Both the position numbers and the translations under genes were made by a program. The notes under the pieces were generated by a model. It did not search any database. It was not told the origin of the DNA and was given only the letters and a program-made list of their open reading frames with translations. From assembly GCA_965645245.1 (NCBI GenBank), contig OZ287080.1, positions 1,364,001 through 1,428,000 of the forward strand: a stretch of 64,000 nucleotides of DNA. The letters run 5' to 3'. Position 1 is the first letter of the stretch. The number at the start of each line of letters is the position of its first letter. Below, in pieces: positions 19,722 through 61,073 of the stretch. The DNA comes from Massalongia carnosa. Its lineage: Eukaryota.

Positions 19722-21844
19722 CTAGACTCTTAATTTATCTGCCTTCATATCCGGAACAATCTCCACCACGACGCCTTTGGGCGCTCGCTTTCCGATTTCC
19801 CCCGCGCCGTACCTATTGATGATGATTAGTAGCCGTTCCTAGGATCTAATAGTATGCAAATCCAATATATAATTAAATTATATATTACGTATTAAAAATC
19901 TTTTAAATAAAAGGATATAAATTAAACGTACCAGGAGATAATAGCCATGCCGATGAACGCGCTCATGCAGCTGAAAACAAGCGCCACAATCCCCCGTGAT
20001 GTGAAGCCTGCCGGTAGCCTTGCTGGAGGTTGCGTCGCACCTTTGAGGTTGAGAAGGTCTTGGGTTCTACCCGCAGCGTTGCCCTCGGTAAGGATGTTCT
20101 GGGACTTGCAAGCCTGAATGTGGTCATCTGGAATCTTGAGGGAGGCTTGTAGTTCCTCAGGCGCTTCGACCATAGTCGCAACGAGGCCACCTGCAACGTG
20201 CCATTCGATATGGCAATGAAATAGCCAGATGCGTGAGGGTGGTCAGTGGGGGGCTTTGCTTCTGCTGGAGAGTGGGGAACATATCTGGATTATCTGCGCG
20301 GAAGCGGAGAACAATGTGGCCGTTCGGCCGCACCATAAATGTGTCTCGCCTCATAGGAACTTCTGGGAAGGTATTATTGTTGGCATAGAAGCCGGCTTCT
20401 TCTTTAGACCGAACAACTGCTTGGAAGGCGTGCCCATGCAAATGGAAAGGATGCTTTCCCGGATCCTCATTGTTGAGGATGATCTCGATAACTTGATTCT
20501 TCTTTAGAACGTAAGCATTAACGTTGATACCGTAGACAGCGGCGTTGGTGGCGACGGTACCGGTGCTAAGGGCGGTAAAGAGAGTGGGAACTTTGGGATA
20601 CACGTAAGTGATATCATTAAAGAATGCACTTAATCATATTGTCAGCACAGGTTTCACCAGGATTTACAATTACTTACTACTTTGCCCCATTGCCCAGATT
20701 GTCCATCCTCACGTTCAAGTTGAAAGAAAAGTCCGGGTTCTCGAAGAGCTTTTCGCCGTCTTCTGGCACTAGGGCGAAATCATCAAAAGGATTGAATTGA
20801 TCTATGAGAATCGGTTTTGGCAAATCCTTTGCTTTATCATATACTAGCCAACCAGTGACGTTTGGATTTAGCGAATCCGGGATAGTGTCAAAGAGGTCCT
20901 ACCTTGCATAAGCTTCGGAAAAAATGCAGGCCTCTAAACATACCTGGTCCATGCTTCCAACAATGGCAAAATTAGCAGAAGTATCATTCTTTGTGGTAAC
21001 AAGGACACTGTATCTTTGCGCAGCAGTGATATAGATCTGTTCTGCTTCCGCCGCTTTGGTGTAGATTCCATCAACTTCAACGATGCGCATGGTATGGCCT
21101 TCAAACCAGAGGTATTGTGCAGCGAAAGCTGCCATGTTAACTATGCGGAACATATAAGTCTTCCCAGGCTTGATTGGAATACTAAGATCCTGGGTGTCAT
21201 TCATGAGTGCTGCTTTAGGAATAGGTTCAGCACCAGTAGGGTTGGCATAGCTGATGAAACCAGCGAGAAGACCTGGCATTTGGTGATGATACCAATCGGA
21301 AAGGGTAAGAACGAGCTCCTCGTCATATTGGTCCTTGTAGGGGGACTCGGGATCATTGATGATTAGAGCGCCACGGAGACCATCAGGATACTGGCCTGGA
21401 GAATGAGAGTGATACCAGTATGTTCCGGGTTGCTTGATCTTTATAATATATAAGTCACGCTTGACCAAAATGATATGAATCATAGTTGGGGCTCACCTGA
21501 AAGTCGTAGGTGAAAGATGCTCCAGGCGCAATAGGACATTGTGTTACACCTACCGGGCCATCCATCTCTGTGGTTCCATTCTGATACAAGCCGTGAAAAT
21601 GCAGACTAGTAGACTGGTTCCCAAGATGGTTCACAACATTGACCATAACACGATCTCCAACGCTCGCAGTGATATGTGGTAGAGGCCATTGACCATTGAT
21701 ACCCATAACAGGTCTCGCGAAAGCACCGTCAGGATTCGCTATTACCCATCCAATATCAAAATTATACGTGACGCTTGCAGCTTGTACAATGGTTGCAAAG
21801 GATATTAGCCCCCTAATGGCAGACTTGGTAAAGTAAGATATCAT
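19722..21844 (-). CDS. fetC: Iron-transport multicopper ferroxidase (Fet3/FetC), 6 exons
   Basis: Signal peptide, [17 protein letters not shown] and HCHIEWH copper motifs, C-terminal TM ([23 protein letters not shown]); divergent to an Ftr1 permease. Confidence 0.95.
20233..20284 (-). other. Putative non-canonical AT-AC intron (52 nt) in fetC
   Basis: ATATGT...CTGAC...CTCAC; excision gives the conserved [16 protein letters not shown]. Confidence 0.8.
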
Positions 21845-22032
21845 GCTGCTCTCTGAAAGTATATTGAGTTATTCTTTAGAGAAGAGAGAAGAACCGAAGA
21901 AGTCCTTTAATGGAGAGAGAAATATGTAAGAGAAACAAGGTCTCCTACTTGGTGAATAGGGAAGATCTGTCTCCAAGCGTGCCTTTCTGGGTGCTTGGTT
22001 GTCGATGGGAGGAACCGAAGACCTACAAAAGG

Positions 22033-23086
22033 ATCTGATAAGATTGGCTTTGTCTAATCTGATTGTCACGCTGTTATGCTTGCCTAAAAGTAGAAGTGCA
22101 TTGAAAGTTATCTTAATTTTAATCCATACCTTTTCCGTAACACACGCCTAGTATAGAGGGGTTGAAATGCCGGTGGTCGGCGAGACCGACAGGGTCACTG
22201 TCCCGAGAACCCAAGGACTTGCCTCTCAGTGCCAGCCTTTGAAATAGTAGGCAGATGTCCGTAGGTCTGAACGGTCAACGCAAACTGAGGACTGAAAATC
22301 TAGGCCAAGGATCTGCTAGCTTATCAGATCAAATAAACCTACACTTCAACTGGCCAATAAAACTATGAACGCGGGCACCCTAATGTTTCAATTGACGAAG
22401 AAACCTTGTTCGGTGTCAAGCTAAGCGAAGACAGGAAATGCAAGTTGATCACAGTGCTGATTGATGACAGCACAACAATCCTGGTGCATTGAGCATGCTG
22501 CTCCCAGTGCAGGCTAAATGGTCATCCTGAATGCTGCCAAGAGAAAGATCGAATGATCAACCAAAGATAAAAATGAAGGGGATTACATACAGGGTTTTGT
22601 GAATGTTAAGAGATTTGATCAGGTTTGACAACAGATAATTATTCGTGTGAGTTTGAGAAGCGAAGAGAGTGTGAGTATCAATGCTCCAAACCGTGCAGGT
22701 TAATGTTACTCAGCATAGCGCACGTGAAAATAGGTTGACGGTATTGAAGAAGTAGGGTAGGCCCGCCTAATGGATGGAACCAGTCGAGGCATTTGAAGAA
22801 GTTAGCGTCATGTGGGAGGAGTTTTCATAACCGAGAAAACCCGCCACCTCCGCTCAAGACTCCAGATCCCTTCTCTCTGCAGAAGCTAATCCACTTACGA
22901 TTCATCCCGACATCGGCGAATATTATCTGATGACACTTCCAACCGAACGAAGACGCAGATCGAGCGTATAATGAATTGGTGTTGAAGCGGCATGTGATTC
23001 CAATGACGAAGTAATAACGCTAGTTTTAACCGAGATCAGATAAAGTTTGGACTTTCCCGTCTGCCCTTATCAATCTCATCAGATAA
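22033..23086. promoter_or_regulatory. Five ATCWGATAA boxes (SreA/GATA iron-repressor consensus) in the bidirectional fetC-ftrA promoter
   Basis: ATCTGATAA 22033-22041; TTATCAGAT 22321-22329; TTATCTGAT 22923-22931; ATCAGATAA 23035-23043 and 23078-23086. Confidence 0.85.
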
Positions 23087-23207: not shown

Positions 23208-24588
23208 ATGGTCAACGTCTTTGCTGTCCCAGGTATATAAGCCGCCCACCAAGAATGATGCGCTAGCTGATATCAATTCTCCCTTTTAGTTTTCTTCATC
23301 TGTTTCCGGGAGACACTCGAGACAGGTATTATTGTCTCGGTACTACTGGCATTTCTTAAGCAGTCTCTCGGACCGAATCGGGATGCTGTGACTTACAAGA
23401 AGCTGGTTCGGCAGGTAAGGCGATTTGTTTTGAAGGATCGAGATAGTTGAATGAGCTAAGAATCTCCAAGGTATGGCTTGGGACTGGAATCGGACTAGCG
23501 ATCTGCATTATAGTCGGTGCTGGTTTGATCGGAGCATTTTACGGCCTTGGGAAAGACCACTGGGCTGGTACTGAAAACATCTGGGAAGGTGCCTTTGGTC
23601 TTTTCGCATCGCTGATCATCACATTGATGGGCGCGGCACTCCTCCGTGTCTCTAAACTTCAGGACAAATGGCGTGTCAAGCTTGCAAAAGCTCTCGAAAC
23701 CAAGGACAGCACGCACAGCAGCACATTGACTGGCCGCTTTAAGCGATGGTGCGAGAGATATGCCATGTTCATGTTACCGTTCATTACTGTTCTCCGAGAA
23801 GGCCTTGAGGCTGTCGTTTTCATCGGAGGTGTAAGCTTGGGTCTACCAGCCTCTTCCTTTCCAATCCCAGTAATAACCGGAATCATCTGCGGCACCCTGA
23901 TTGGATATTTCATCTATAAGTATGGAACATCTGTCACGATCTTTACAGGATGGAGTGACTAACGCAAAACTCAGAGGAGGTAATTTTGCTTCCATACAGG
24001 TGTTCTTGATCATCTCGACATGTTTCTTGTATCTCGTTGCATCAGGCCTCTTCTCCAGGGCCGTATGGCTATTTGAAATGGACAGGGTAAGTAATTCGGC
24101 TCTACCAAGAATATAATATTGATCGCCGGAAGTGGAACAAAATTATTGGCGGTAATGCCGCGGAAACTGGATCAGGTCCAGGCTCATATGACATCCGCAA
24201 TAGCGTTTGGCATGTTAATGTCAGTGCTGTCAATAAACTCATATTTTGCGGGAGAGAGTAACCGCTGACGGCCAAAACACAGTGCTGTAGCCCAATGGTC
24301 AATGGCGGCGGTGGGTGGGGCATTTTCAATGCACTCTTCGGCTGGCAAAATTCAGCAACCAATGGCTCTGTTATTTCGTATAACGTCTATTGGATTGCCA
24401 TTGTTGTTGGGTTTGCCTTGTTAGGGTATAATGAGAAGGCTGGCCATTGGCCATTGGTGAAGCCGATGAAGCTATCAACGAGAAACGACAGTGAGACCAC
24501 AAGCGATGAAGAAGGCGGTATGGTCAACCCTCCGAGGGTCGTGGATAAAAATGGTATGCATGCTAGAGTATCCCACGCTATATCCTGA
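23208..24588 (+). CDS. ftrA: High-affinity iron permease (Ftr1/FtrA), multi-exon
   Basis: [19 protein letters not shown] and LREGLE (two RExLE motifs), [23 protein letters not shown]. Confidence 0.95.
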
Positions 24589-28379: not shown

Positions 28380-29382
28380 ATGCCTTTCTCTTCCCTATTC
28401 AAAAGCAAAGACTCTAGCCTTCGCACCCCCAATCCTTCTCGAACTCTAAGTTTTCGATCAACATCCAAAACGCCTTCCAGCTCTCCCTTCAACAATCTTT
28501 TCACCTCTTCGGCAAACAGTAAGCCCAGTATGTCCCGTGCTCTTTTCTTCCGCTCACTCCATCATCAAGCTAACCCCTCTTACAGGGGCGCAGAGCCGCA
28601 ACACCTTTTTAGACACTACATCAGATGCTCCACCCGTCTACACGCCGGAAGCACCATCCACAAGCCATGTCCAAACTTATATTTCCCAGCCCGGCGTTTT
28701 TGACGGAGATGACCCTTTTGCCTTTCTCGCCAAGTTTGATACCGTTTTCTTGATCGATGACTCCGGCAGCATGGCCGGCCGCTATTGGAAAGAAACTCGC
28801 GATGCCCTCAAAGCAATCACACCGATCTGCACTGACCGCGACCCGGACGGCATCGACATTTACTTCCTCAATACACCAGATAGACCCGAATTCCGCAACA
28901 TCAAGAAGCCGAACGCCGTAGACCAAATTTTCAAGCAAGTCAAACCACATGGAGGCACCCCCACCGGCGATCGGCTTTGGGACATCCTCGAACCCTACCT
29001 CAATGATTTAAAGAAGCGAGGCGCAAAAGCGGTCAAGCCCCTCAATATCATAGTGATCACCGATGGCGTTCCGACTGATGATCCAGAGCAGACCATCATC
29101 GACACAGCCCAATTGTTGGATGAGTGGAAGTGTCGGTCATCACAGGTTGGCATCCAATTCTTCCAAGTAGGCAACGATGAGAGAGCCACAAAGTTATTAA
29201 TAGATATGGACGACAACCTAGCGGGAAGAGGTAAAGGCTGCAGAGATATAGTGGATACAGTGCCATTTTCCGATAAGAATGGAGTCGGTTTGAACGGGGA
29301 AGGGATTATGAAAGTCGTTCTGGGTGCTGTTAATAAAAGGCTAGACCGACAAGCCAACAACGGTGAGATAAGGCAGTTATGA
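28380..29382 (+). CDS. von Willebrand factor A (vWA) domain protein; exons 28380-28518 and 28586-29382
   Basis: FLIDDSGSM (MIDAS), GGTPTG, IIVITDG, GIQFFQVG; intron GTAAGC...GCTAAC...TACAG joins the frames. Confidence 0.88.
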
Positions 29383-33067: not shown

Positions 33068-36000
33068 ATGAGTTTTGGATTCAGCGTGGGCGACTTCATC
33101 GCCGTGTCCAGGCTTGTCAGCGATATCCAAAGTCGATTGAGGAATGCTCCAGATCAATTTAAAGCAGTATCTGCTGAGTGGGTTCCATCAAAGTCGATCA
33201 TTTCTTTCAGTCTACTTTGTTTGATAGAGTTAGGAGTCTTTCGGATATTCTCTGCGACTTAGAAAATGTTTTAAACAAGCGAAGTCTTACCGCGCGCCAG
33301 AAACAAGATTTGCATAGTATCGTTGAAGGATGTCGCGACGTCCTAATTGACCTGAATAAGGTGATGGACAAATATCATTGCTTGATCGTTAGTCCTAAAA
33401 GCCTTGGCGACAAATCTCAAAGACTATGGAAGAAGTTGAGATGGGAAATCCGATCACATAACGGAACTTCGTTCACGTATAATATCAAACATAAGCCTTC
33501 TGAATATTTTCAATGGAAGCCTAATCAAGTGAGAGATGCTCATTAGGTTAATCATTTCTATCTCGTTAACGATTCCAAGCAATATGTCTCATGCAACGAA
33601 AGACGGTGTGGATCGACTAAACAAGCATCAAGATGATAGGGAGCGGTTTATTGTTGAAGATTGGCTTTCATCCGCGGATTTCGCTGCACAGCAGACTGAC
33701 TTTATAAGTAGACGTCAAGAAGGGACCGGCCAATGGTTATTGAAATCTAACGAATTCAAAACCTGGCTTGATGGAACAAAAAAAACTCTATTCTGTCCCG
33801 GAATTCCAGGAGCTGGCAAGACAATCCTAACTTCCATTGTTATCGACCATCTTTGGACCAAATTTCAGGCTGATAGTAAGATCCGTATCGTGTACTTATA
33901 TTGTAGCTACAAAAGGCAGCAAGAGCAGAGCCTCAGAGATCTTATAGCTAGTTTGCTCAAGCAACTTGTCAAAGGACTCTCCGTCTTGCCAAACAACATA
34001 AAGAGTCCATATCGGCTTCATGTGGCAAGAGATACTCGCCCTTCGATTGACGAGTTTATAACTATACTTCATTCTGTCATTGACCGTTATTCCAAAATTT
34101 TCTTCGTCATTGATGCGCTTGATGAGTGTACCACCAGCGATAGAACTCGAGAACGGTTGCTGGAGCATATTTTCAAGATTCAGTCTTATACAACGGCGGC
34201 TTTATTCGTAACTTCGAGGTTTCTTCCTGAGATAACGGCAATATTTAAGAAAGAGATGTCGATAGAGATTCGTGCCAGCGCTGACGACGTCAGAAAATAT
34301 CTTGACACACGTATAACGGAGTTGTCCAGGTGTGTTTTACGGAACTCCGCTCTGCAGGATAACATCAAAACCGAAATTGTGAAGGCAGTTGACGGAATGT
34401 AGGTAATTTTACATCGTTCACAACAACTGAAGCAACTAATGATCAATTAGGTTTCTTCTAGCTCAGCTTCATTTGGACTCGCTTTCCGGAAAAACAACGC
34501 CCAAAGCCGTTAGGCTTGCGCTATCACAACTACCCAAAGGATCGAAAGCATTAGATGCTGCCTATGACGAAGCCTTAGAAAGAATTGAAGGCCAGAAACC
34601 AGGCTTTCCAGAGCTTGCTAAACGTGTCCTGTGCTGGATCACTTATACAAATCGGCAATTGACTGTTATGGAACTTCAGCATGCCTTAGCAATTGAGGTT
34701 GGCGAATTTGAGCTCGATGAAGAGAACTTTTGCGAGATTGAGGAAATGGTTTCCGTCTGCGCCGGGCTAGTGACAATTGATCCAGAAACAGACGTAATCC
34801 GCCTGGCTCATTATACGACCCAGGAATATTTTGAACGTATACAACCGCTATGGGCACCAGAGTTTCAAACCGACATTTCCATAGCTTGTCTAACCTATAT
34901 ATCTTTTACTACGTTTGAAATGGGTCCTTGTGTTAAGAATGAGGTTCTTCAAGCACGATTGCAACAGAACGTTTTTCTTTACTATGCTGCCGAGCATTGG
35001 GGGCACCATGTTCGTGCAGCTGCGAATGAAATTGTGAACGACTTTGCTTTTAGATTTCTCAATGACGATTTGAAAGCCTCTTGCTCCATTCAAGTACTAA
35101 TGCGCTATGGACAGGATTCATACCTTAAAAAATGATTTCTCTGGCTACGACCCTGGAAATCCTAACCGATTCACAGCGACACATCTTGCAGCATACTTTG
35201 CGCTAACGGAAGTAATGGGAGCTTTATTAAGAAGCGGTTACTCACCAGACGCAAAAGATGAGTATGGCAGAACGCCGCTAGCTTGGGCAGCCGCGTGCGG
35301 GCACGATTCAATGGTGAAGGTGCTATTGAAGCGTGCCGATGTTGATGCGGACTCGAAAGATCGTTACGAACGAACTCCGTTGGCCCAGGCAGCAGAATAT
35401 GGGCACGAGGCGGTGGTGAGATTGCTGATCGAGCGGGACGACGTCAATGTAGATTCAAAGACATAGAGGCCGAAAAAACGCCATTATCTAGAGCAGCAGA
35501 AAAGGGACACGAGGTAGTGGTGAATTTACTAATCAAGCGGGACGATGTCATAGTTGACTCAAAAGGCGCTAACGGACGAACACCGTTAGGTGAGGCGGCA
35601 AAAAATGGACACGAGGTAGTGGTTAAACTGCTGATTGAGCGTGACGACGTGAAAGCGGATTCGAACGATTTTTCTCATAATACGCCCTTATCTTGGGCGG
35701 TTAGGAATGGCCACGAAGCGGTGGCAAAACTTTTGCTGAAGCGGGACGACGTCAACGTAAATCCAAGAAATACGATGGGTGCAACACCGCTAGCTTCAGC
35801 GTGTTTTGCCGGGAACGAAGCAATGATTAGGCTGCTGATGGAACGAACCGATCTTGAGCTGAACTCAAGGAATAATAGCGGTTGCACGCCATTTTATGAA
35901 GCGGCATGGGGAGGGCACGAAAGAATAGTGAAATTGTTGATGGAACGAACCGATCTCCAGTTAGACACGAGAGATGATTATAATATAACGCCGTTGATTT

Positions 36001-36667
36001 CGGCGGCCCAAAGAGGGCATGAAAGGGTGGTGCAATTGCTGCTGGAACGAAACGAAGTCGACCCTAATTCTAGGAATGACAGAGGTGAGAGTCCGCTGAC
36101 TTCGGCAGCCCGGCATGGACACGGGGAGGTGGTGAAATTGCTGCTGGAACGAAAAGAGCTTGATCCTAATTCTAAAAATGACAAAGGTGAGACTCCACTG
36201 GCTTTGGCAGCTTGGCATGGGCGCGAGGAGTGGTGGCATTACTGCTGGAACGCAAGAACGTTGATTGGGATCCCCCGAATCGCGAAGGCGACACGCCGCT
36301 AGTGTCAGCAGCCGAAAATGGGTATGAACGAATAGTGAAATTGCTGCTAGAACGAAACAAAGTCAATCCAAATTTCAGAAGTAGCAGAGTCCGTCCCCCG
36401 CCTGATTTCGATGTCTGGGATGGACATGAGAGGCGGTGGAAATTGCTGAAGCCAAGCGACGGCACACCGCAGCGCATAGATGACAGAGGTAACACGCCGC
36501 TGACTTTCGCAGCCAAGAATGGGCACGAGGGAGTGGTAAAATTGCTGCTGGAACGAAAAGACGTCGATCCGAATCCCACAAATACCAAAGGTGAAACGCC
36601 GCTGGCTTTGGCAACCAAGTATGGGCGCGTGGGAGTGGTAAGGCTGCTGAAGCAATATATCTCCTAA
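33068..36667 (+). pseudogene. Fungal NLR-like gene: HeLo-like/SesA-type N-terminus, NACHT, ankyrin repeats; at least four frameshifts
   Basis: MSFGFSVGDF start, GTGQWLL, Walker A GIPGAGKT, Walker B VIDALDEC, RLAHYTTQEYF, more than 12 TPL..AA..GH ankyrin repeats. Frame breaks near 33447, 35130, 35465 and 36228. Confidence 0.85.
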
Positions 36668-44601: not shown

Positions 44602-46844
44602 ACGTAACTCACTGGGCAACGGGACTAACTAAATTTCGCTTAATTTCTACAGCCTTTGCATGCAACTTAATCACATTTTACGTGGTTGACGTACAATACG
44701 ACCCCGTCTGGTAGTTTGAACCTTCTTCACCTCCTCCACCACCTCCACCTCCACCTCTACCCCCCCACTCACCTTCACCTCCTCCACCCCCTCCACCTCT
44801 TCTGTCATTGGTTGAAGCACGGGAGGAGGTAGCAATCGTCTTTGAAAAGAACAAATAGGCTTACTTTGTGAACTATCAGGTGCTTTCTGAGGACTTTTCT
44901 GAGGACTTTTCGTCGAAGATGCAGTAGACGTTTGTCCTAGTAAATCAGGTCCAAATCGACACATTTCCCTGAAAGTTTTGATAAGGTCCTGCTCAGCTCG
45001 TTTTAGCTGAGCGGCCTTCTTTTTTTCGTCTTTCACCTTTTGTTTATCTTTGGCCCATTGCTGTCTTTGTTGAACGTCTTCAAGGCTTAGAACTCGAGCC
45101 TTTCCTCCATAGTGAGCCCCGCTACGATTGGCTCGATGATGGCGCCGTACATTGGCCCGAAGAAGCTCGTTGTTGGTGATACGTAGCAAGGTAGAGTCTG
45201 CGAAGGCATATTTAGCGCCTTTTATCAATTTATTTAGCGCTCGAACGGGAGTCGAGTCTGATTCTTCATCATTTCGAATTCGACGAATCAGTTGATTTAT
45301 TTGATCGATATTTGCAGGTGTCTTTTCAATTTCGTGAGAGTTTTGAAGGGTTGTCGGAGTGTTAGGATGAGAGGAGGTGATATTCGTGGTGGTGGTAGTA
45401 GTAGTGGTGGTGGTGGTGGTGGTAGCGGTGGTGATGATGCTATCAGTCTTTCGCAACACCGATTGTTTATTAGTGAGTTTTTGAAGAACTGATGACGGAT
45501 TGTATGGTACTAATCCGGTTGCTCTCCATGCAGTCAGCACGTTTTTTGTGTTGATTGCTTCTTTTCTTGCTTTTTGAATGATCTTCAGAAAATCCACCTT
45601 GTCCACTGAACAGACGTTGAATCGGGTGACGACCTCCAATTGTTTTTTGTACTCCCGTGATAAGGGCCCAAAAACACTCACGTCCAGAGGTTGCAACATA
45701 TGGGTAGTATGTGGAGGTAGACACAAAAGAATGATTTTCTTTTCGTTGCAAAACCTGATGAATTCGGTAGAAATATGGGAAGCATGACCATCTACTATAA
45801 GAAGTCGATATTCACCGTGTAGATATTTTGCAGTAGCAGGTTCAAAACACTTTTTCAACCAATCAAGACCTAGTTCATTGTCTGTCCATCCGTTTTCGCT
45901 GGTAGCTATTTCAGTGTCAATGTCCTCCAGTGCATCGTACCAGGCCTTTTGCTTGTTGACTCCTTTGAAGATGACGAAAAGAGGTAAACTTCGACCGGTA
46001 GTACAAATGGACTCGATCAATGACACCTATTCTCGATTACCTGACTGTGCTGAAAAGGCTTGCTTTTCGTGCTTAGAAATTACTACTTTAGCACTAGCAG
46101 CTACCCCCATCATGAATCCCTTTTCGTCCATGTTGTAGATGTCTTCATCAAGAATTCCGTGCTTTTCTTTCATGGAGAGGAAAAGGTCAAACCAGTGCTG
46201 AAATATCTCTTCATTCTCAGCGAATAATCGTTCTTGATCTAGTGTGCGACTGTATTTAGCCTGCAGATCGGGATGACGATGTAAAAAATACTGTTGCCAA
46301 TTGACTCCTAGCACAGTATGATTCCCCCTTGCTCGTAGTAATTCTATGGCCATCTGACGTAGCTGAGCTATTTTAGCAGGCCAGCCCCAGGCGTACAGTT
46401 GTAAAACCCAGTTCTTCAAAGCGTCTTCCTCCTCGGGGGTCAGCAGTTGTTTAGTTTGATCAGACGTAAATCGTGATTGACGACCCTGAATGCGGGCATG
46501 AAGGGTAGACTTTGAAACATCATATAGAAAAGCTGCCTTCGTAATGGAAAGAGCTCCATCGGCCTGTTTCTAGGCCAAAAAGGCTGACTGTAATCGTTGT
46601 TGATAGGTGGAGGTGGGGTGAAAACATGAAGGAATGGAGGTCTTGTGGGAGGTGGTTTTTTTACCTACACCCATGATTATAAAGTTTCAAAATGATGAAT
46701 ATAATCTACTGTGATGTCTGAAGCTGAATTTGTATGTAAAATGTATGTAATGAAGGCTTCATCATCTAGAGTGGTCAAAAAGTGATGATTTCGGAATTAC
46801 TTAGTCCCGTTGCCCAGTTTGTCCCGTTGCCCAGTGAGTTACGT
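44602..46844 (-). mobile_element. Fot1/pogo-family DNA transposon, 2243 bp, TA target duplication
   Basis: TIR ACGTAACTCACTGGGCAACGGGAC at both ends; TA at 44600-44601 and 46845-46846; subterminal duplicate of GTCCCGTTGCCCAGT at the right end. Confidence 0.95.
44671..46674 (-). pseudogene. DD35D pogo/Fot1 transposase with two in-frame TAG stops
   Basis: HTH and CENPB-like N-terminus, YNMDEKGF, LIVDGHASH, QPLDV. Stops at 46570-46572 and 46027-46029 (GNRE* where GNREW is expected). Poly-Thr microsatellite at ~45388-45433. Confidence 0.92.
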
Positions 46845-47040
46845 TATGCCCGTAGTGTCTTAAAATGTGGGCTCCATGCCAGATTTAGCTTCTCGGAAGA
46901 TATTAATTCCGGGTTGCTGGTATCGTCGCGCTGGTTCGAAAAGGATTTTATATTCTAACCCTTCACTCACAGCCAAGTTGCTCTAGAAGCGTGTTGCTTC
47001 ATCAGCCTCGGTTTTTTTGAGACAAATCGTAGCCGACCTT

Positions 47041-50000
47041 ATGAGAACCCGTCATAAACCTCAATGGCTGATTCATAAAACTAAATGTTCCCAGCAGCTT
47101 CATAGTCCTTTCTCGACGCAAGCATTGAAGACCAGGCGAGCCATCCTTCAAGCTCAACATTCAGATTCATATGCACGCTCACGAAAATCCTCCAACAGCA
47201 AGTTAAATGTGAGGCGACCAGATGATAGGGATAAAGCGGGCCATTCGTTAACTCGATCGAAGAGAGGGAATACACCAAAGGTTTCACCCGCTAGAGGCAT
47301 TAATAAACTTTCAAATCCTTCGGTACACTTGCACTTTGCCTTAGCCTTTGACTGTCTGCTCTGGTCGGAGAGATTTCACACGATATCACTTGAAACTAAA
47401 GCTTTAGCTTTATTTGTGCCTAGTGATTATGCCAAGTACTCGTTTCGTGGAGCCTGGGAAGCTTCATATGCGATCTTTCGTATCTTGCAAAGAATAAGGT
47501 CTACGGAATTTCTCCCGGTGCAAGATAAGGCATTGAATTCAAGCCTTGCTTCCGCTACTCCAAAAACTTCTCAACTGCGATTAGAGTTATACAATTCGAC
47601 CCCTAATTCCGCTCCATCAGCAGACCGTCGGGTGCAATACAAGGCAGTGAATCGGCGTATACCAAGAACACCGAAAAGATCGAAAGCCTTGAAGGCGAAA
47701 ACCAAAAATTTAAACGTATCAAAACCTAGTTCCCGCTCACTTCTGCATCACGTAGGCGACCGGCTACTCGATCCATCGTTTCCCCTAGACCACGTCCGTA
47801 CGGGCAGAATGCATTCCTGGATTCAATTTCTTACTACACCTACTGCAGACACCCCAGGCACTGCCTTGCTACTCCACTTCGATCAACATCGTTATGTTAT
47901 TGGCAATATTCATGAGGGTCTTGCGAGGGCTAGCATGGAGATGGGAGCGAAGTTGGTAAAGGTTTCGAACATATTTGTGACTGGCAAGACGGAATGGAGG
48001 AACACTGGGGGCTTAATTGGAATGGTTTTGACCTTGGCAGATACAGTGACGCCTGCGACTACTCATACGTTAAAAAAGAACAAGGCCGCAGGAGCCGTCC
48101 AACCAACATTAACAGTACACGGGGGAAGCAATATCGCGCATACTCTTGCTACAGCAAGGCGATTCGTTCTTAGGAAGGGTATGCCCGTCGAGGTCAAAGA
48201 GTACTCCGAGAAGACTCAGAGCCAGAGAGTGGCGCAAAGATGGGAGCCTGATTGGGCGGACGAGTGTCTCAAGGTGTGGACAATAGCAGTGGAACCTTCA
48301 GGTACTGATGATATGACAACACCAAAATCTCCCCGGAAGCGAAGCTTTGAAGAGTTTAGCCAAGAATTTGCTTCACCTGCGGAAAAGCTCCAACTTGGGG
48401 AGCCCGGCGAGACTGTATCAAACTGGCAGCAAAAAACCCGAGCGAATGTGATTTCGGAGATGTTCAATTCAGAGTGGCGAATGGACAACCTTCAAGAGAT
48501 GCTACTTGCTGACGTGGTTATGCCCGCAACGATTTTTGTTAGTAACCCTGTCACGAAACAGATTCACCGTTACGAAGGCCCACTTCCTTGGGGAACACAG
48601 GCTGTACCTCATCTCAAAGTCTTGGTCCGAAAGCCTTGGCCAGGGGCGCTCCAGGTGTCTTTGCCGTCGACTGAGCCTTCGGAAACTGCTATATCCTATG
48701 TTATTCGATGCCACGCACAACGTGGAAAATTCCTACCTGCGAATGCAATTGCTTTGAACGTGCCTAAGGGCCGATTATGGACGCAGCTATCTAGAGGGCT
48801 AGATGTGCAGTCTCTCGATGGGAAAACTATAAAACCCGAAATGGTGATGGCGGCGGGTAAGAATGGTGGAGGCGTAGTCATAGCAGACTTGCCATCGCAT
48901 CGTTATGTCCGTGGTCTTCTTGACAGACCAGAGTGGCAAGCTTTAGAAGTAATAACAGGTGTCGAAGCGGTTATTTGGATCTTAGGGCCTGGGGTCAGCC
49001 AGAACAAGGAATTACAAACTTTCATCAATAATCATAAGTCTCTAAAGCATATCGTTTCGTCTGAAGATCATTGTCCTAATTATCTTTCATTTGGTGCTTC
49101 TGCGGCCGCGTCCATACGCATGAATCAAGTTGACCCAAAGCGTTATCCTGTTCCTATTCACAACAATAATAACAACATCATCATTCCACGGCAAGGTGAA
49201 CCAAATGATGAAAAAACCTGTGAATTCGATTTCGTTCAAGCAGAACGTGGGCTCAAACTCCACTTTGCACCATCCATGGCTGTCGAACATGATCTAGTGC
49301 TTCCGATATTGGACACAGCAGCGGTTGCGCAGGAAGTATCACAAGATGTGCTTGAACTGGCAAAAATTGCAAGAAATGAAATATCAACGGAGGCGGTACA
49401 GGCAGAGATCGCGAGCCAAGATTTACCGAGTTCGGACGCAGAGATCATATGTTTGGGAACCGGGTCTGCTGCGCCCTCCAAATATCGCAATGTATCTGCA
49501 ACTCTATTGCGAGTGCCCGGTAAAGGATCATATCTGTTTGATTGCGGGGAAAGCACAATCGGACAGTTGCGACGCGTCTACACACCTACTGAGCTGAGCG
49601 AGGTTCTTCGTGATCTCAAACTCATCTGGATTAGTCACCTTCATGCAGATCATCACCTGGGAACGACGTCCGTCATCAAAGCTTGGTCTGAAGAAGTGCA
49701 TGGCAAGAAATTTGCAGGAGGGATCCCTTTAAGTCAGTCTTTATTGCCGGAACTACCCAACCCGGCCGAGATTTTGCTGACTGGAAATCGACTCTGTGTG
49801 ATCAGCAATGAACCTATGCTAGAATGGCTCCGGGAATACTCTCAAGTTGAGGATTTTGGTTTCGATCACCTGATCCCGATTGCTTCTCACCCAGGATACT
49901 TTGGAAAACTGGAATCACGCTTTTTTTGGAATGGTAGCTCACTGGATTTCCGTCATCGCAAAAATCGATTGTAAGTTCAACCACCTACGTTCTCAATCAT

Positions 50001-50958
50001 ATTAGTTAACCTAAGCTCCAGAGGTAGCGCTTTCCGAACTACAACAGGTCTCAGTGATATCGCTACCTGTGCTGTTTCACATTGTAATGGTTCACAAGCT
50101 GTTTGCCTTACTTTTTCGACTGGTTTCAAGTTTTCCTACAGTGGTGACTGCCGTCCCTCTAAAGCCTTTGCACTAATTGGAAGAGACTCCACCGTGCTGC
50201 TGCACGAAGCAACGTTCGATGATGAACGTCAAGGTGACGCGATAGCAAAAAGGCATAGCACGATGGGGGAAGCGATTGCCGTGGGGAAGGAAATGCGTGC
50301 CCGGAGGATCTTGTTGACGCATTTCAGTCAACGATATCAGAAGATACCTGTCATGAGTGGGATGGAAGAGAAAAGGGTGGAATACGAAGAAGTTGGGGAG
50401 GCTGCTGATGCTCAAGAGAAGGAGATCGACCATATTGTAGGAGGTATCCCAAACGAAGACATTCCGTTGCAAAGGCAGGAGTTGACGCAACTTACACCCT
50501 CAGCTTCCGAGACCAAGCGCTTTATCACGAAACCTCAATCTAAAAAGCTGTTGTCCACCAAGTCATCATCCTCCAACCCACTAGCAAACGATGTGAAAAT
50601 TGGCGTTGCGTTCGACTACATGCGTGTTAAAGTGGCCGATATCATGCATCTAGAAAAGTACGTGCCCGCCATGATAAAACTTCATGAGGAGCAGGAGGAA
50701 AAGAAGAAAATACCAAAGACGGGAGGTTCAGAATTATTGACGGTGTCTAACGAAAAGAACCAACTTGAAGACGAAAAATCGACAAAAAAATCAAGGTCTA
50801 CTACTTTGGAACAAGTCCTTAGAGGAATCGAAAGTGGAGAGCAAGCCGGGGCTGGATTCAAGTTGGATGATGAAAGTACCCCCGAAATAGGAGATGTGAT
50901 ACAAACTCCCCATCGAGACAATGCGCAGGGCAGGAAATTAAACTTGGCCCCCTCATGA
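47041..50958 (+). CDS. trz1: tRNase Z (long form, ELAC2/Trz1); intron ~49971-50021
   Basis: TPTADTPGT, LGTGSAAPSKYRNVS, FDCGE, SHLHADHHLG, YSGDCRPS, LHEATF, LTHFSQRY. Confidence 0.93.
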
Positions 50959-59234: not shown

Positions 59235-61073
59235 TCAGCCACACACCACGCCTTCCCTCGGCATCTCCCCCCTCGGCGGGCCTGCCCCATTCCCGTCGCT
59301 AGCGCGCTTCCCACCTTTCACTCCCACCCCCACTCCCATCATCACCTTCACCTTCACCTCCTCCTCTTCCACCTTCCTCCGGGCCTTCTTCCCAAGCGCC
59401 CAACTCCCCTTTTCCAACGCCTCTTTTGGCAATGGGCGCACATACGGCTGACACACCCACCACGGCTTCTTGCACGCGCGCACCGCCGCGACGGAACTCC
59501 CGAGCCGGTCATCTTCGTCGTCGTCGCTAGCGGTCTTCTGCTCGGTGGCTAGGTTAGGGGGGGGGTCCTCGTATTTCGCCGGATCGGTCGCATGGTCAAG
59601 GAGACCTTGCTCGACGGCCGCTTCAACGAGCGAGAGCACGTTCTCGAAGGCGGGGATGTCGCCGGCTCGAGAGTGGGCTAGGGCGTCGCGAATGTGGGTG
59701 TGTTGGGTTACTAGAGGGCGGAGAAGGCTGAATAGGTGAGCTTGTATGGAGAGCAGGTTAGGGGAGGTGCATTTGATGTGTTTTTTCTTTGGCTTGTCCT
59801 CATTTGTTGCTCTTTGGCTTGCTGTCGCCGTTCCGTCCGTGGGTATACCGACTTGTCCTGCTGGATTGGCGCATTTTAGTTTCTTCGCCGGCCGCGCGCC
59901 AACTTCATTGAAGCAGCCTCCGAGTTCCAAGGCAGCTTCAGCAGGAGAATCAGAGGGAAGGAAGAGCGGTTTCCGTTTCGGCAATGGCGTTTCTAGGACA
60001 TATTGATAGATAATATCCATATATCTCCTGAAAACGGCGTCCATCCGATATCCTCCCTTACCATCGCGACCCCTCCAATACTCTCGATCTTCATCACCCA
60101 TAGCAGGCGCTTTGGCAAAAATAGCCGGATCATGCAGATTTCCTTCCGCACTCATCACTCCATCGGCGCCCGTCTCTCTTAGGCACCTATCGATATCCCC
60201 GTACTGCAGGATATTACCATTGGCAAATATAACGGTTTCTGGGGGGAGGTTCTCCCTTAGGTAGCGTAGAACCGACCAATCAGCCAAGCCAGTCTTGTGT
60301 CCCTTTTGGTCTCGTAGACGTCCATGCACCGTGAGCACACTTGCACCCGCTGAGAGGATGACCTTTGCATATTCCAGCGTCTTCTCTCTCGTCTCTAATA
60401 TTCGCATTTTGGCCGTCACTGGCACGTCGAGATTCTTGTGAAGCGTGTTGATGAGTTCGTACACAAGTTTCCAGTCTTCCTGCAGGAAAGCACCATAATG
60501 CCCCTTGCGTGCAATGCCTTGCGGACAGCCTAGGTTCAGATCGACCGCATCGCAATATGGCGCAACGTACCTTGCAGCCTCTAGAAGGTAATCAGGCGAA
60601 TTTGCGCAGAATTGAACGATTAACGGTCTGTCCACGGAAGGATTACCATCCAGGTATATATCTGACGGCGCAGATACCGATTCGAGAGAGGGAGGCGATA
60701 CCATGCCAGATCTCGTTGGTTGGAAACTATGATTGCGGTATTGGACCGTCTGGGCGAAGAGCCTTGAATGTATCATAGGCGTGTAGGCAAGGAGGTCTTT
60801 CGAAGATCCGGGGGGCATGAAAGATCTCGTGAGCATTCGCCAGGCCTAGATGTTGGGGTCAGTCGGCTGATGAGTGACGAATGGCAAGTAAAAGCATACA
60901 AACTCTGATTGATCGACCATGGGAGCAAGAATCATCTTGGGACTGCCCAAGCTCTCATAGAATGCTCGACCCGTTAGTTTTCCTCTTGTCGTTGGCTGCA
61001 ACGATGACGATTGATCCGATTGAACTCCTGGTCGTTGCGAGATTCCATTTGGACTACTCATTAAGGTAGCCAT
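59235..61073 (-). CDS. dus1: tRNA-dihydrouridine synthase 1; one intron ~60847-60900
   Basis: LAPMVDQSEF|AWRML, YTPMIHSRLF, DRPLIVQFCAN, DLNLGCPQGIARKGHYGAFL, TVHGR, ANGNI. Confidence 0.93.

Follow-up and report, generated by a model that had tools for sequence, protein, structure and literature searches.

Here, we show that the fourth intron of the fet3/fetC gene of Massalongia carnosa starts with AT and ends with AC, and that it very probably works as a U2-type (type II) AT-AC intron, spliced out by the major spliceosome. The case is made by the sequence, the reading frame, a strict co-variation of the first and the last intron base, conservation and compensating bases. Use of the U2 machinery is what the splice signals point to, together with the published absence of minor introns from Ascomycota. 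The class itself is known; the fet3 intron adds a member to it and is functional by every indirect test.

The gene lies on the minus strand (21844-19722) of the window, the 64,000-nucleotide stretch of contig OZ287080.1 that was analyzed, and has five introns, of which all but intron 4 are GT-AG. The gene, intron 4 and the divergent neighbor are laid out as follows:

21497..21844, minus strand: fet3 exon 1, with the start codon and Cu-oxidase_3
20944..21438, minus strand: fet3 exon 2, following GT-AG intron 1 (21496-21439)
20678..20898, minus strand: fet3 exon 3, following GT-AG intron 2 (20943-20899)
20285..20628, minus strand: fet3 exon 4, following GT-AG intron 3 (20677-20629)
20233..20284, minus strand: fet3 intron 4, phase 1, 52 nt, AT...AC ends
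19932..20232, minus strand: fet3 exon 5, with the HCH motif and a predicted C-terminal membrane stretch, placed by eye
19722..19812, minus strand: fet3 exon 6, with the stop codon, following GT-AG intron 5 (19931-19813)
22033..23086, no strand: shared fet3/ftr1 promoter region
23208..24588, plus strand: divergent ftr1/ftrA iron permease gene, outer limits by eye

The fet3 exons match three multicopper-oxidase Pfam domains (three cupredoxin domains), all complete. The best solved structure for exon 4 is yeast Fet3p (1ZPU, E 3.6e-37), and Fet3p is also the closest solved relative when reached via an 80%-identical relative (P0003). Judged by these matches the host is an intact Fet3-type ferroxidase gene with predicted activity, and its protein groups with those of Peltigera and Lobaria (SH-aLRT 99-100), which makes the source a lichen fungus of the Peltigerales type. 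The ftr1 gene begins divergently about 1.4 kb from fet3 and carries domain PF03239 (E 1.3e-39 at 23447-23959). ATCWGATAA, a motif reported for A. fumigatus SreA targets (PMC2610380), occurs six times in the window where 1.5 are expected, a count reached in 0 of 100 shuffles; five of the six lie in the shared promoter region. Three cupredoxin domains, a divergent permease and SreA-type motifs are also what characterizes the Fet3/FetC-Ftr1/FtrA pair of reductive iron uptake (yeast Fet3p, 1ZPU; A. fumigatus SreA regulon, PMC2610380). Only the intron differs from these known systems, while the protein is ordinary. Two further features were seen around the gene. A GT...AG stretch at about 22084-22128 on the minus strand, 5' of the fet3 start, looks by eye like a 5' UTR intron. 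Within intron 5 (119 nt) lies an AT-rich piece of 57 bases (19863-19919) that is covered in runs X1-X3 by other contigs whose depth exceeds the local one about 4- to 25-fold. Its loose ends are identical in all four runs, and the window holds no second copy; it is a dispersed repeat or decayed element that lengthens intron 5.

The signals of intron 4 and the motif that follows it are located as listed here:

20279..20287, minus strand: 5' splice site CAG/ATATGT, U2-type except for G+1 replaced by A
20242..20246, minus strand: branch site CTGAC, branch A at 20243, 10 nt before the 3' end
20233..20235, minus strand: 3' splice site CAC, with no AG between branch site and intron end
20198..20218, minus strand: HCHIEWH codons, the last copper-binding motif, five codons past the junction

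Read on the minus strand (20284-20233), the intron starts with ATATGT and ends with CTCAC, and its inner bases are 51% C. Removing it yields a protein of 599 residues without internal stop, in which DNP-G joins IWLF-HCH and the Gly codon of DNPG is assembled across the junction. Retention would end the protein at residue 511, ahead of HCHIEWH. When donor/acceptor pairs of nine end types were enumerated over exons 4 and 5, 781 junctions kept an open frame. All pairs that keep both HPFHLHG and HCHIEWH are AT-AC or CT-AC, and among them the 20284/20233 AT-AC junction is the only one that also keeps DNPG; no GT-AG or GC-AG pair among the 781 keeps HCHIEWH. The claim of the initial annotation that only removal of these 52 nt restores the frame cleanly was borne out. 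Its 22-nt GT-AG alternative does not leave an open frame, as it hits the branch-site TGA in frame. Since this TGA is in frame with exon 5, every upstream AG acceptor is blocked. Other GT-AG options that we tried and rejected are those of 16 and 19 nt, which bring an in-frame TGA that lies inside the intron, and one of 27 nt, which shifts the frame. There is a second, in-frame CAC at 20239-20241 (minus strand), six bases ahead of the true acceptor and four bases past the branch A. Its use would add two residues and lose the Gly, and it is a possible acceptor for a minor isoform.

The letters themselves are secure. Contigs of runs X1, X2 and X3 (depth 421, 148 and 771), which come from two samples of one study and may include the source of the window itself, cover 19964-21950 with no differing letter and no gap. 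An X4 piece at depth 2 spans intron 4, likewise without differences. The ends of intron 4 are no assembly error. As a bare motif, an intron with first base A and last base C (A..C) is no rarer than chance: the window has 15 candidates, while 20 Markov shuffles of it gave 19.9 on average. The case rests on frame restoration and conservation. By eye, none of the remaining candidates in the window restored a recognizable protein.

The donor fits the U2 consensus except at +1, with G at +5, and shares seven of nine positions with CAG/GTAAGT; the A at -2, in the exon, occupies the third position of the DNPG Pro codon. The branch site is of the U2 type. U12-type introns have an ATATCC(TT) donor and a branch site of the TCCTTAAC type, and intron 4 has neither the ATATCC(TT) donor nor a TCCTTAAC-type branch site. 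A Rfam scan of the 64-kb window gave no matches, which is uninformative about minor snRNAs elsewhere in the genome.

The same intron was then sought in metagenome DNA with a pattern that fixes the flanking codons and leaves the intron ends free, and that reaches introns of 41-101 nt with exact flanks. It returned 43 loci, of which 27 are GT-AG, 12 AT-AC and 3 AC-AC, and one is an intronless false match. Mixed ends (GT-AC or AT-AG) occur in none of the 42 intron-bearing loci. The pattern found no locus in viral_contigs or genome_contigs, as expected for a fungal gene, and at the DNA level no match could be assigned to Eurotiomycetes, Leotiomycetes, Teloschistales or early-diverging fungi. With the window included, the position is represented by 33 distinct introns (21 GT-AG, 9 AT-AC and 3 AC-AC). 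Using a spliced aligner that admits both end types everywhere, with locus L041 left out, we found A..C ends at 12 of these 33 introns. Elsewhere in the same genes the aligner placed 97 distinct introns, and every one of them is GT-AG. By protein likeness the A..C loci are Tuber-like (L015, L021, L027, L031 and L035, with exon 2 of L027 98% identical to Tuber borchii), Pleopsidium-like, that is Acarosporales-like, in two paralogs (L001, L011, L032 and L004, L005, L008), or Lecanorales-like (L013 and L017, L030, L038). Loci with GT-AG (G..G) ends that are long enough to place are Sordariomycetes-like or Dothideomycetes-like. In the AC-AC introns of a Lecanorales-like fungus (L017, L030 and L038) the donor reads ACAAGT, with G+1 and T+2 both replaced; AC-AC is the A..C counterpart of GC-AG.

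The A..C introns differ from their G..G counterparts in the surrounding bases. The exon ends in CAG in 12/12 distinct A..C introns vs 9/21 G..G introns, C stands at -3 in 12/12 vs 7/21, and A at +3 and G at +5 are present in all 12 A..C introns. Each of these 12 carries a branch motif of the CT[AG]A[CT] type (one is TTGAC), in contexts such as GCTGAC, GCTAAC, ACTGAC and similar, 8-13 nt from the end and with no AG after it. The U12 donor ATATCC occurs in none of them. Here, too, the first reading of the sequence was right, which had seen a GTATGT donor with G1 changed to A and a U2-type CTGAC branch site. Selection may be visible at a silent position. Among seven lineage representatives the third base is fixed in 1 of 70 fourfold-degenerate invariant columns, which is that of the donor Pro codon, and CCA makes up only 26% of the Pro codons in these genes. 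In ten G..G genes 1 of 69 fourfold columns is fixed, at another site, and 0 of 22 Pro columns. Because the lineages are related, independence is overstated in the Fisher values that go with this analysis (p 0.002 raw, and 0.02 after lineages were roughly collapsed). The intron is the most C-rich one of its own gene at 8/9 A..C loci vs 4/12 G..G loci (0.45 vs 0.29). The A..C introns are unstructured as well, and a tendency to keep out G, by which competing GT and AG disappear, may account for this without any regulator.

The proteins of relatives lead us to infer that intron 4 is spliced in M. carnosa. The Lobaria immixta model P0121 reads NP and then DK and loses HCHIEWH, while the Logan proteins P0003 and P0123, identical to it at 572 and 573 of 587 aligned residues, carry the predicted junction. 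The Letharia lupina model P0133 is mis-modelled likewise, and Logan P0069, P0134 and P0135 carry the predicted junction; both pairs are protein-level comparisons and may involve sister species. Logan calls on genomic contigs (P0122, P0124-P0126) stop at intron 1, and the full-length ones, on contigs of 2.5-5 kb, are therefore best read as spliced transcripts. The full-length proteins show no insertion at the junction. Together with the frame test and the homologous loci, this indirect evidence marks the AT...AC termini as a true exon junction.

Read-through of the intron leaves footprints in public gene models: reading in from the A turns DNP-G into DNP-D, and reading out from the C puts R before IW or VW. 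These footprints do not separate AT from AC donors, and the gene finder may distort them. Among 261 homologs, 160 are correct, 39 show NP-D, 3 show R-xW and 9 run on after G; 44 end short of the site and 6 behave otherwise. By count, D or R footprints occur in 26 named genera: Peltigera, Lobaria, Alectoria (two paralogs), Usnea, Letharia, Cornicularia, Mycoblastus, Lasallia, Pleopsidium, Agyrium, Xylographa, Ptychographa, Pycnora, Candelaria, Candelina, Sarea, Thelocarpon, Vezdaea, Geoglossum, Trichoglossum, Glutinoglossum (two paralogs), Watsoniomyces, Phylliscum, Cirrosporium, Tuber and Choiromyces. Models of four Tuber species and Choiromyces end after NP-DM. In Teloschistaceae the models are either correct or read on with a G at each end, and as far as protein models tell this suggests a GT-AG intron. 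Correct models, among them those of Morchella, Psora, Trapelia, Dirinaria and Exophiala, may reflect GT-AG ends, intron loss or RNA-guided annotation. The A..C state recurs in a second, divergent Fet3-like paralog of lichen fungi and earth tongues (P0137, P0139, P0161, P0390, P0391, L004), and for a similar paralog in Xylographa the model is correct. Of 150 cluster representatives, 88 are correct by the strict pattern, 16 aberrant, 20 off-pattern and 26 short of the site; two of the 16 aberrant ones read NP-DK and most others are only motif variants. None of the 150 shows U12-like read-through, a result that is uninformative for distant homologs because correct models hide the intron.

We propose that U1, and later U5/U6, would read the donor, which is near-perfect but for +1, and that CTGAC would be read by U2. 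In the second step the first base A would pair non-canonically with the last base C in place of the G-G pair, and the A at -2 would pair with the branch A. Two such pairs are seen in the post-catalytic spliceosome structure, one between the last and the first intron base and one between the -2 A and the branch A; A-C is modelled there as a tolerated substitute for G-G (10.1101/212811). G1A is rescued by G-1C in yeast and human, with lower efficiency (PMC1557818). The compensatory A-C pair invoked by the initial annotation is in these reports a known suppressor that the major spliceosome tolerates. The conserved N-P-G codons would provide a C-x-G exon end, in which selection would have fixed the silent x as A. 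A at +3, G at +5, C at -3 and the short AG-free distance from branch to end would have been kept, offsetting the weak end bases. Splicing would give full-length Fet3, while retention would give a protein that lacks the last copper motif and the membrane anchor.

Removal by a divergent, surviving minor (U12) spliceosome would account for the AT-AC ends and the phase, since minor introns typically have AT-AC ends and lie in phase 1 (PMC10639083). The branch site is also close to the intron end, and the donors, ATATG[CT], depart from ATATCC at one position (+5) or at two (+5 and +6). However, the complete lack of ATATCC, with G at +5 and a CT[AG]A[CT]-type branch in every one of the 12 introns, speaks against it, and the orthologous introns are plain GT-AG U2 introns. 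A survey of more than 3000 genomes (PMC10639083) reports, in its available text, no convincing minor introns in Ascomycota, in agreement with the premise of the initial annotation that Pezizomycotina are without a minor spliceosome. We regard such a surviving spliceosome as highly improbable. Decay of the gene in this lineage, or ends that are sequencing errors, with an intron that stays unspliced, is extremely improbable: the three deep runs show no differences, the other exons are open, the Pfam domains are complete, and ftr1 and five SreA-type motifs adjoin. The same state is moreover found in many lineages, with selection on a silent site. The view that the gene is not decaying has thus held up.

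A-to-I editing occurs in some filamentous ascomycetes and would make the +1 base read as G, after which ordinary splicing could follow; yet both A+1 and C-1 would need changing. Against an intron that is kept and bridged by frameshifting, A..C introns of 50, 51, 52, 58 and 86 nt cover all three remainders modulo 3, their retained forms terminate at differing places, and relatives' full-length proteins lack an insertion. Editing or frameshifting is extremely unlikely. The least credible reading, to which we give practically no weight, is non-spliceosomal removal of the Ire1/tRNA-ligase type, as in HAC1. The odd ends, and the fact that Fet3 is a secretory-pathway protein, would suit it, but the intron is unstructured (minimum free energy -0.8 kcal/mol here and between 0 and -6 for the relatives) with no hairpins, spliceosomal donor and branch motifs are conserved, and GT-AG introns occupy the same position. 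We thus return to removal by the major spliceosome. The initial annotation had seen a natural double substitution spliced in this way, and the U2 signals agree with it; the substitution is, however, not private, as it is shared across several Pezizomycotina classes and by two paralogs. The comparison with fet3 introns of relatives that it called for places A..C at the same position in multiple lineages, and its expectation of mis-annotation is met by the footprints in the genera listed above.

The divergence of Tuber (Pezizomycetes) from the lichen lineages is dated to about 435 My ago (400-487; PMC3683012), and the U2-type AT-AC intron at this position is perhaps as old, about 435 My. In trees built from spliced models, a clade of 55 rows with both Pezizomycetes and Sordariomycetes in it (SH-aLRT 99) excludes the divergent A..C paralog, whose branches are long and close to the outgroup. 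Teloschistaceae are nested inside a clade of A..C carriers (98 and 96). On the 61-row tree the fewest changes are four, or two when only DNA-verified rows are counted. A single G..G clade is not rejected with 61 rows (p-AU 0.447), an analysis in which the ambiguous P0015 (Gallowayella) was scored as GT; with 31 rows, from which P0015 was left out, and a simpler model it is marginally rejected (p-AU 0.045). Both end states at one position mean that at least one double change certainly took place; several changes, and their direction, are likely, the gene tree being no proof. We lean towards A..C as the state in the common ancestor of Pezizomycetes and Leotiomyceta, after which some lineages would have changed to GT-AG or lost the intron. 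Two or more separate A..C origins at a permissive site are somewhat less probable. A further idea is that the intron belongs to a small cohort of ancient AT-AC introns of filamentous ascomycetes that predates the loss of the minor spliceosome. Taken over by the major spliceosome with their A..C ends intact, they would have been retained for more than 400 My because slow, conditional splicing serves as a control point, and in fet3 the conserved C-rich, unstructured body would bind an iron- or copper-sensitive RNA-binding factor. This is improbable, and the regulatory reading, raised by the initial annotation as a possible rate-limiting step in an iron-regulated gene, and the U12-relic reading taken together are hardly less so. 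If true, retention of the A..C intron would remove the last copper motif of Fet3, and the lineages with GT-AG would have escaped, more than once, from a state regarded as a trap.

Type II AT-AC introns have been described before, 24 of them in human, mouse and fly, and the only fungal cases named there, as a hypothesis, are xylanase genes of filamentous fungi (PMC1557818). The animal introns of SCN4A, SCN5A and TAF2 share with the fet3 intron the AT..AC ends, a good U2 donor with G at +5 and conservation between distant species (PMC1557818). In contrast to this set, the fet3 intron has GT-AG ends in some lineages and AC-AC ends in one, and animal genomes with such introns also have the minor spliceosome, which this fungal lineage reportedly lacks (PMC10639083). 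The yeast G1A/G-1C suppressor and the P-complex structure (10.1101/212811) share the non-canonical pairing of first and last base, with which the lack of mixed ends in 42 loci agrees; there the pair is a laboratory mutant or a model, whereas the fet3 intron is a natural, long-kept allele with compensating bases. RNA-seq of Fusarium graminearum found 2 AT-AC and 1 AC-AC introns among 28 non-canonical genes (PMC3577648), so that both end types are spliced in a Pezizomycotina fungus, as proposed for fet3. The available part of that paper gives only gene ids for these cases, without conservation or mechanism, and the Sordariomycetes-like fet3 loci seen here are GT-AG. Lin et al. 2010 (PMC2831892) proposed a U12 origin for U2 AT-AC introns, which would be trapped once formed. 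The introns described as trapped resemble that of fet3 in having G at +5, with A at +4 or T at +6 improving the donor, and in their long persistence. However, this model, as far as its accessible text goes, expects no switch of ends, while the fet3 position shows both states; trapping does not hold strictly here. A cross-kingdom survey rates fungal AT-AC introns as minor (PMC7072748, in the part available). Our search of the full-text literature, with few subscription journals covered, found no paper on the fet3 intron or its conservation, and in the accessible portion of a preprint on a Rhizophagus oxidase (10.1101/2022.06.14.496117) we found no splice-site data.

The position offers a natural replicated test of first/last base pairing, with 42 loci that are G..G or A..C and never mixed. 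The A..C forms reveal which bases the major spliceosome then needs, namely the CAG exon end, +3A, +5G and -3C. With both states at one position across fungal classes, the route and the direction of a double change can be studied with existing genomes. There is a practical side as well. In public models of 26 genera the main iron-uptake oxidase is cut short or has lost its copper motif, and such fet3 models would mislead claims of gene loss or counts of laccases.

Several other features were noticed in the window. A Pif1-type helicase fragment lies at 1372-2052, a VWA-domain gene at 28450-29382 and an NLR-like fungal gene with NACHT, winged-helix and ankyrin-repeat domains at 33533-36302 on the plus strand. 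A Tc5/pogo-type transposase (HTH_psq, HTH_Tnp_Tc5, DDE_1) at 44671-46569 on the minus strand is interrupted by a stop. It adjoins a tRNase Z gene (46987-50958), in which a stop at 49972-49974 between two long ORFs is possibly located in an intron. A dihydrouridine synthase is found at 59235-60845.
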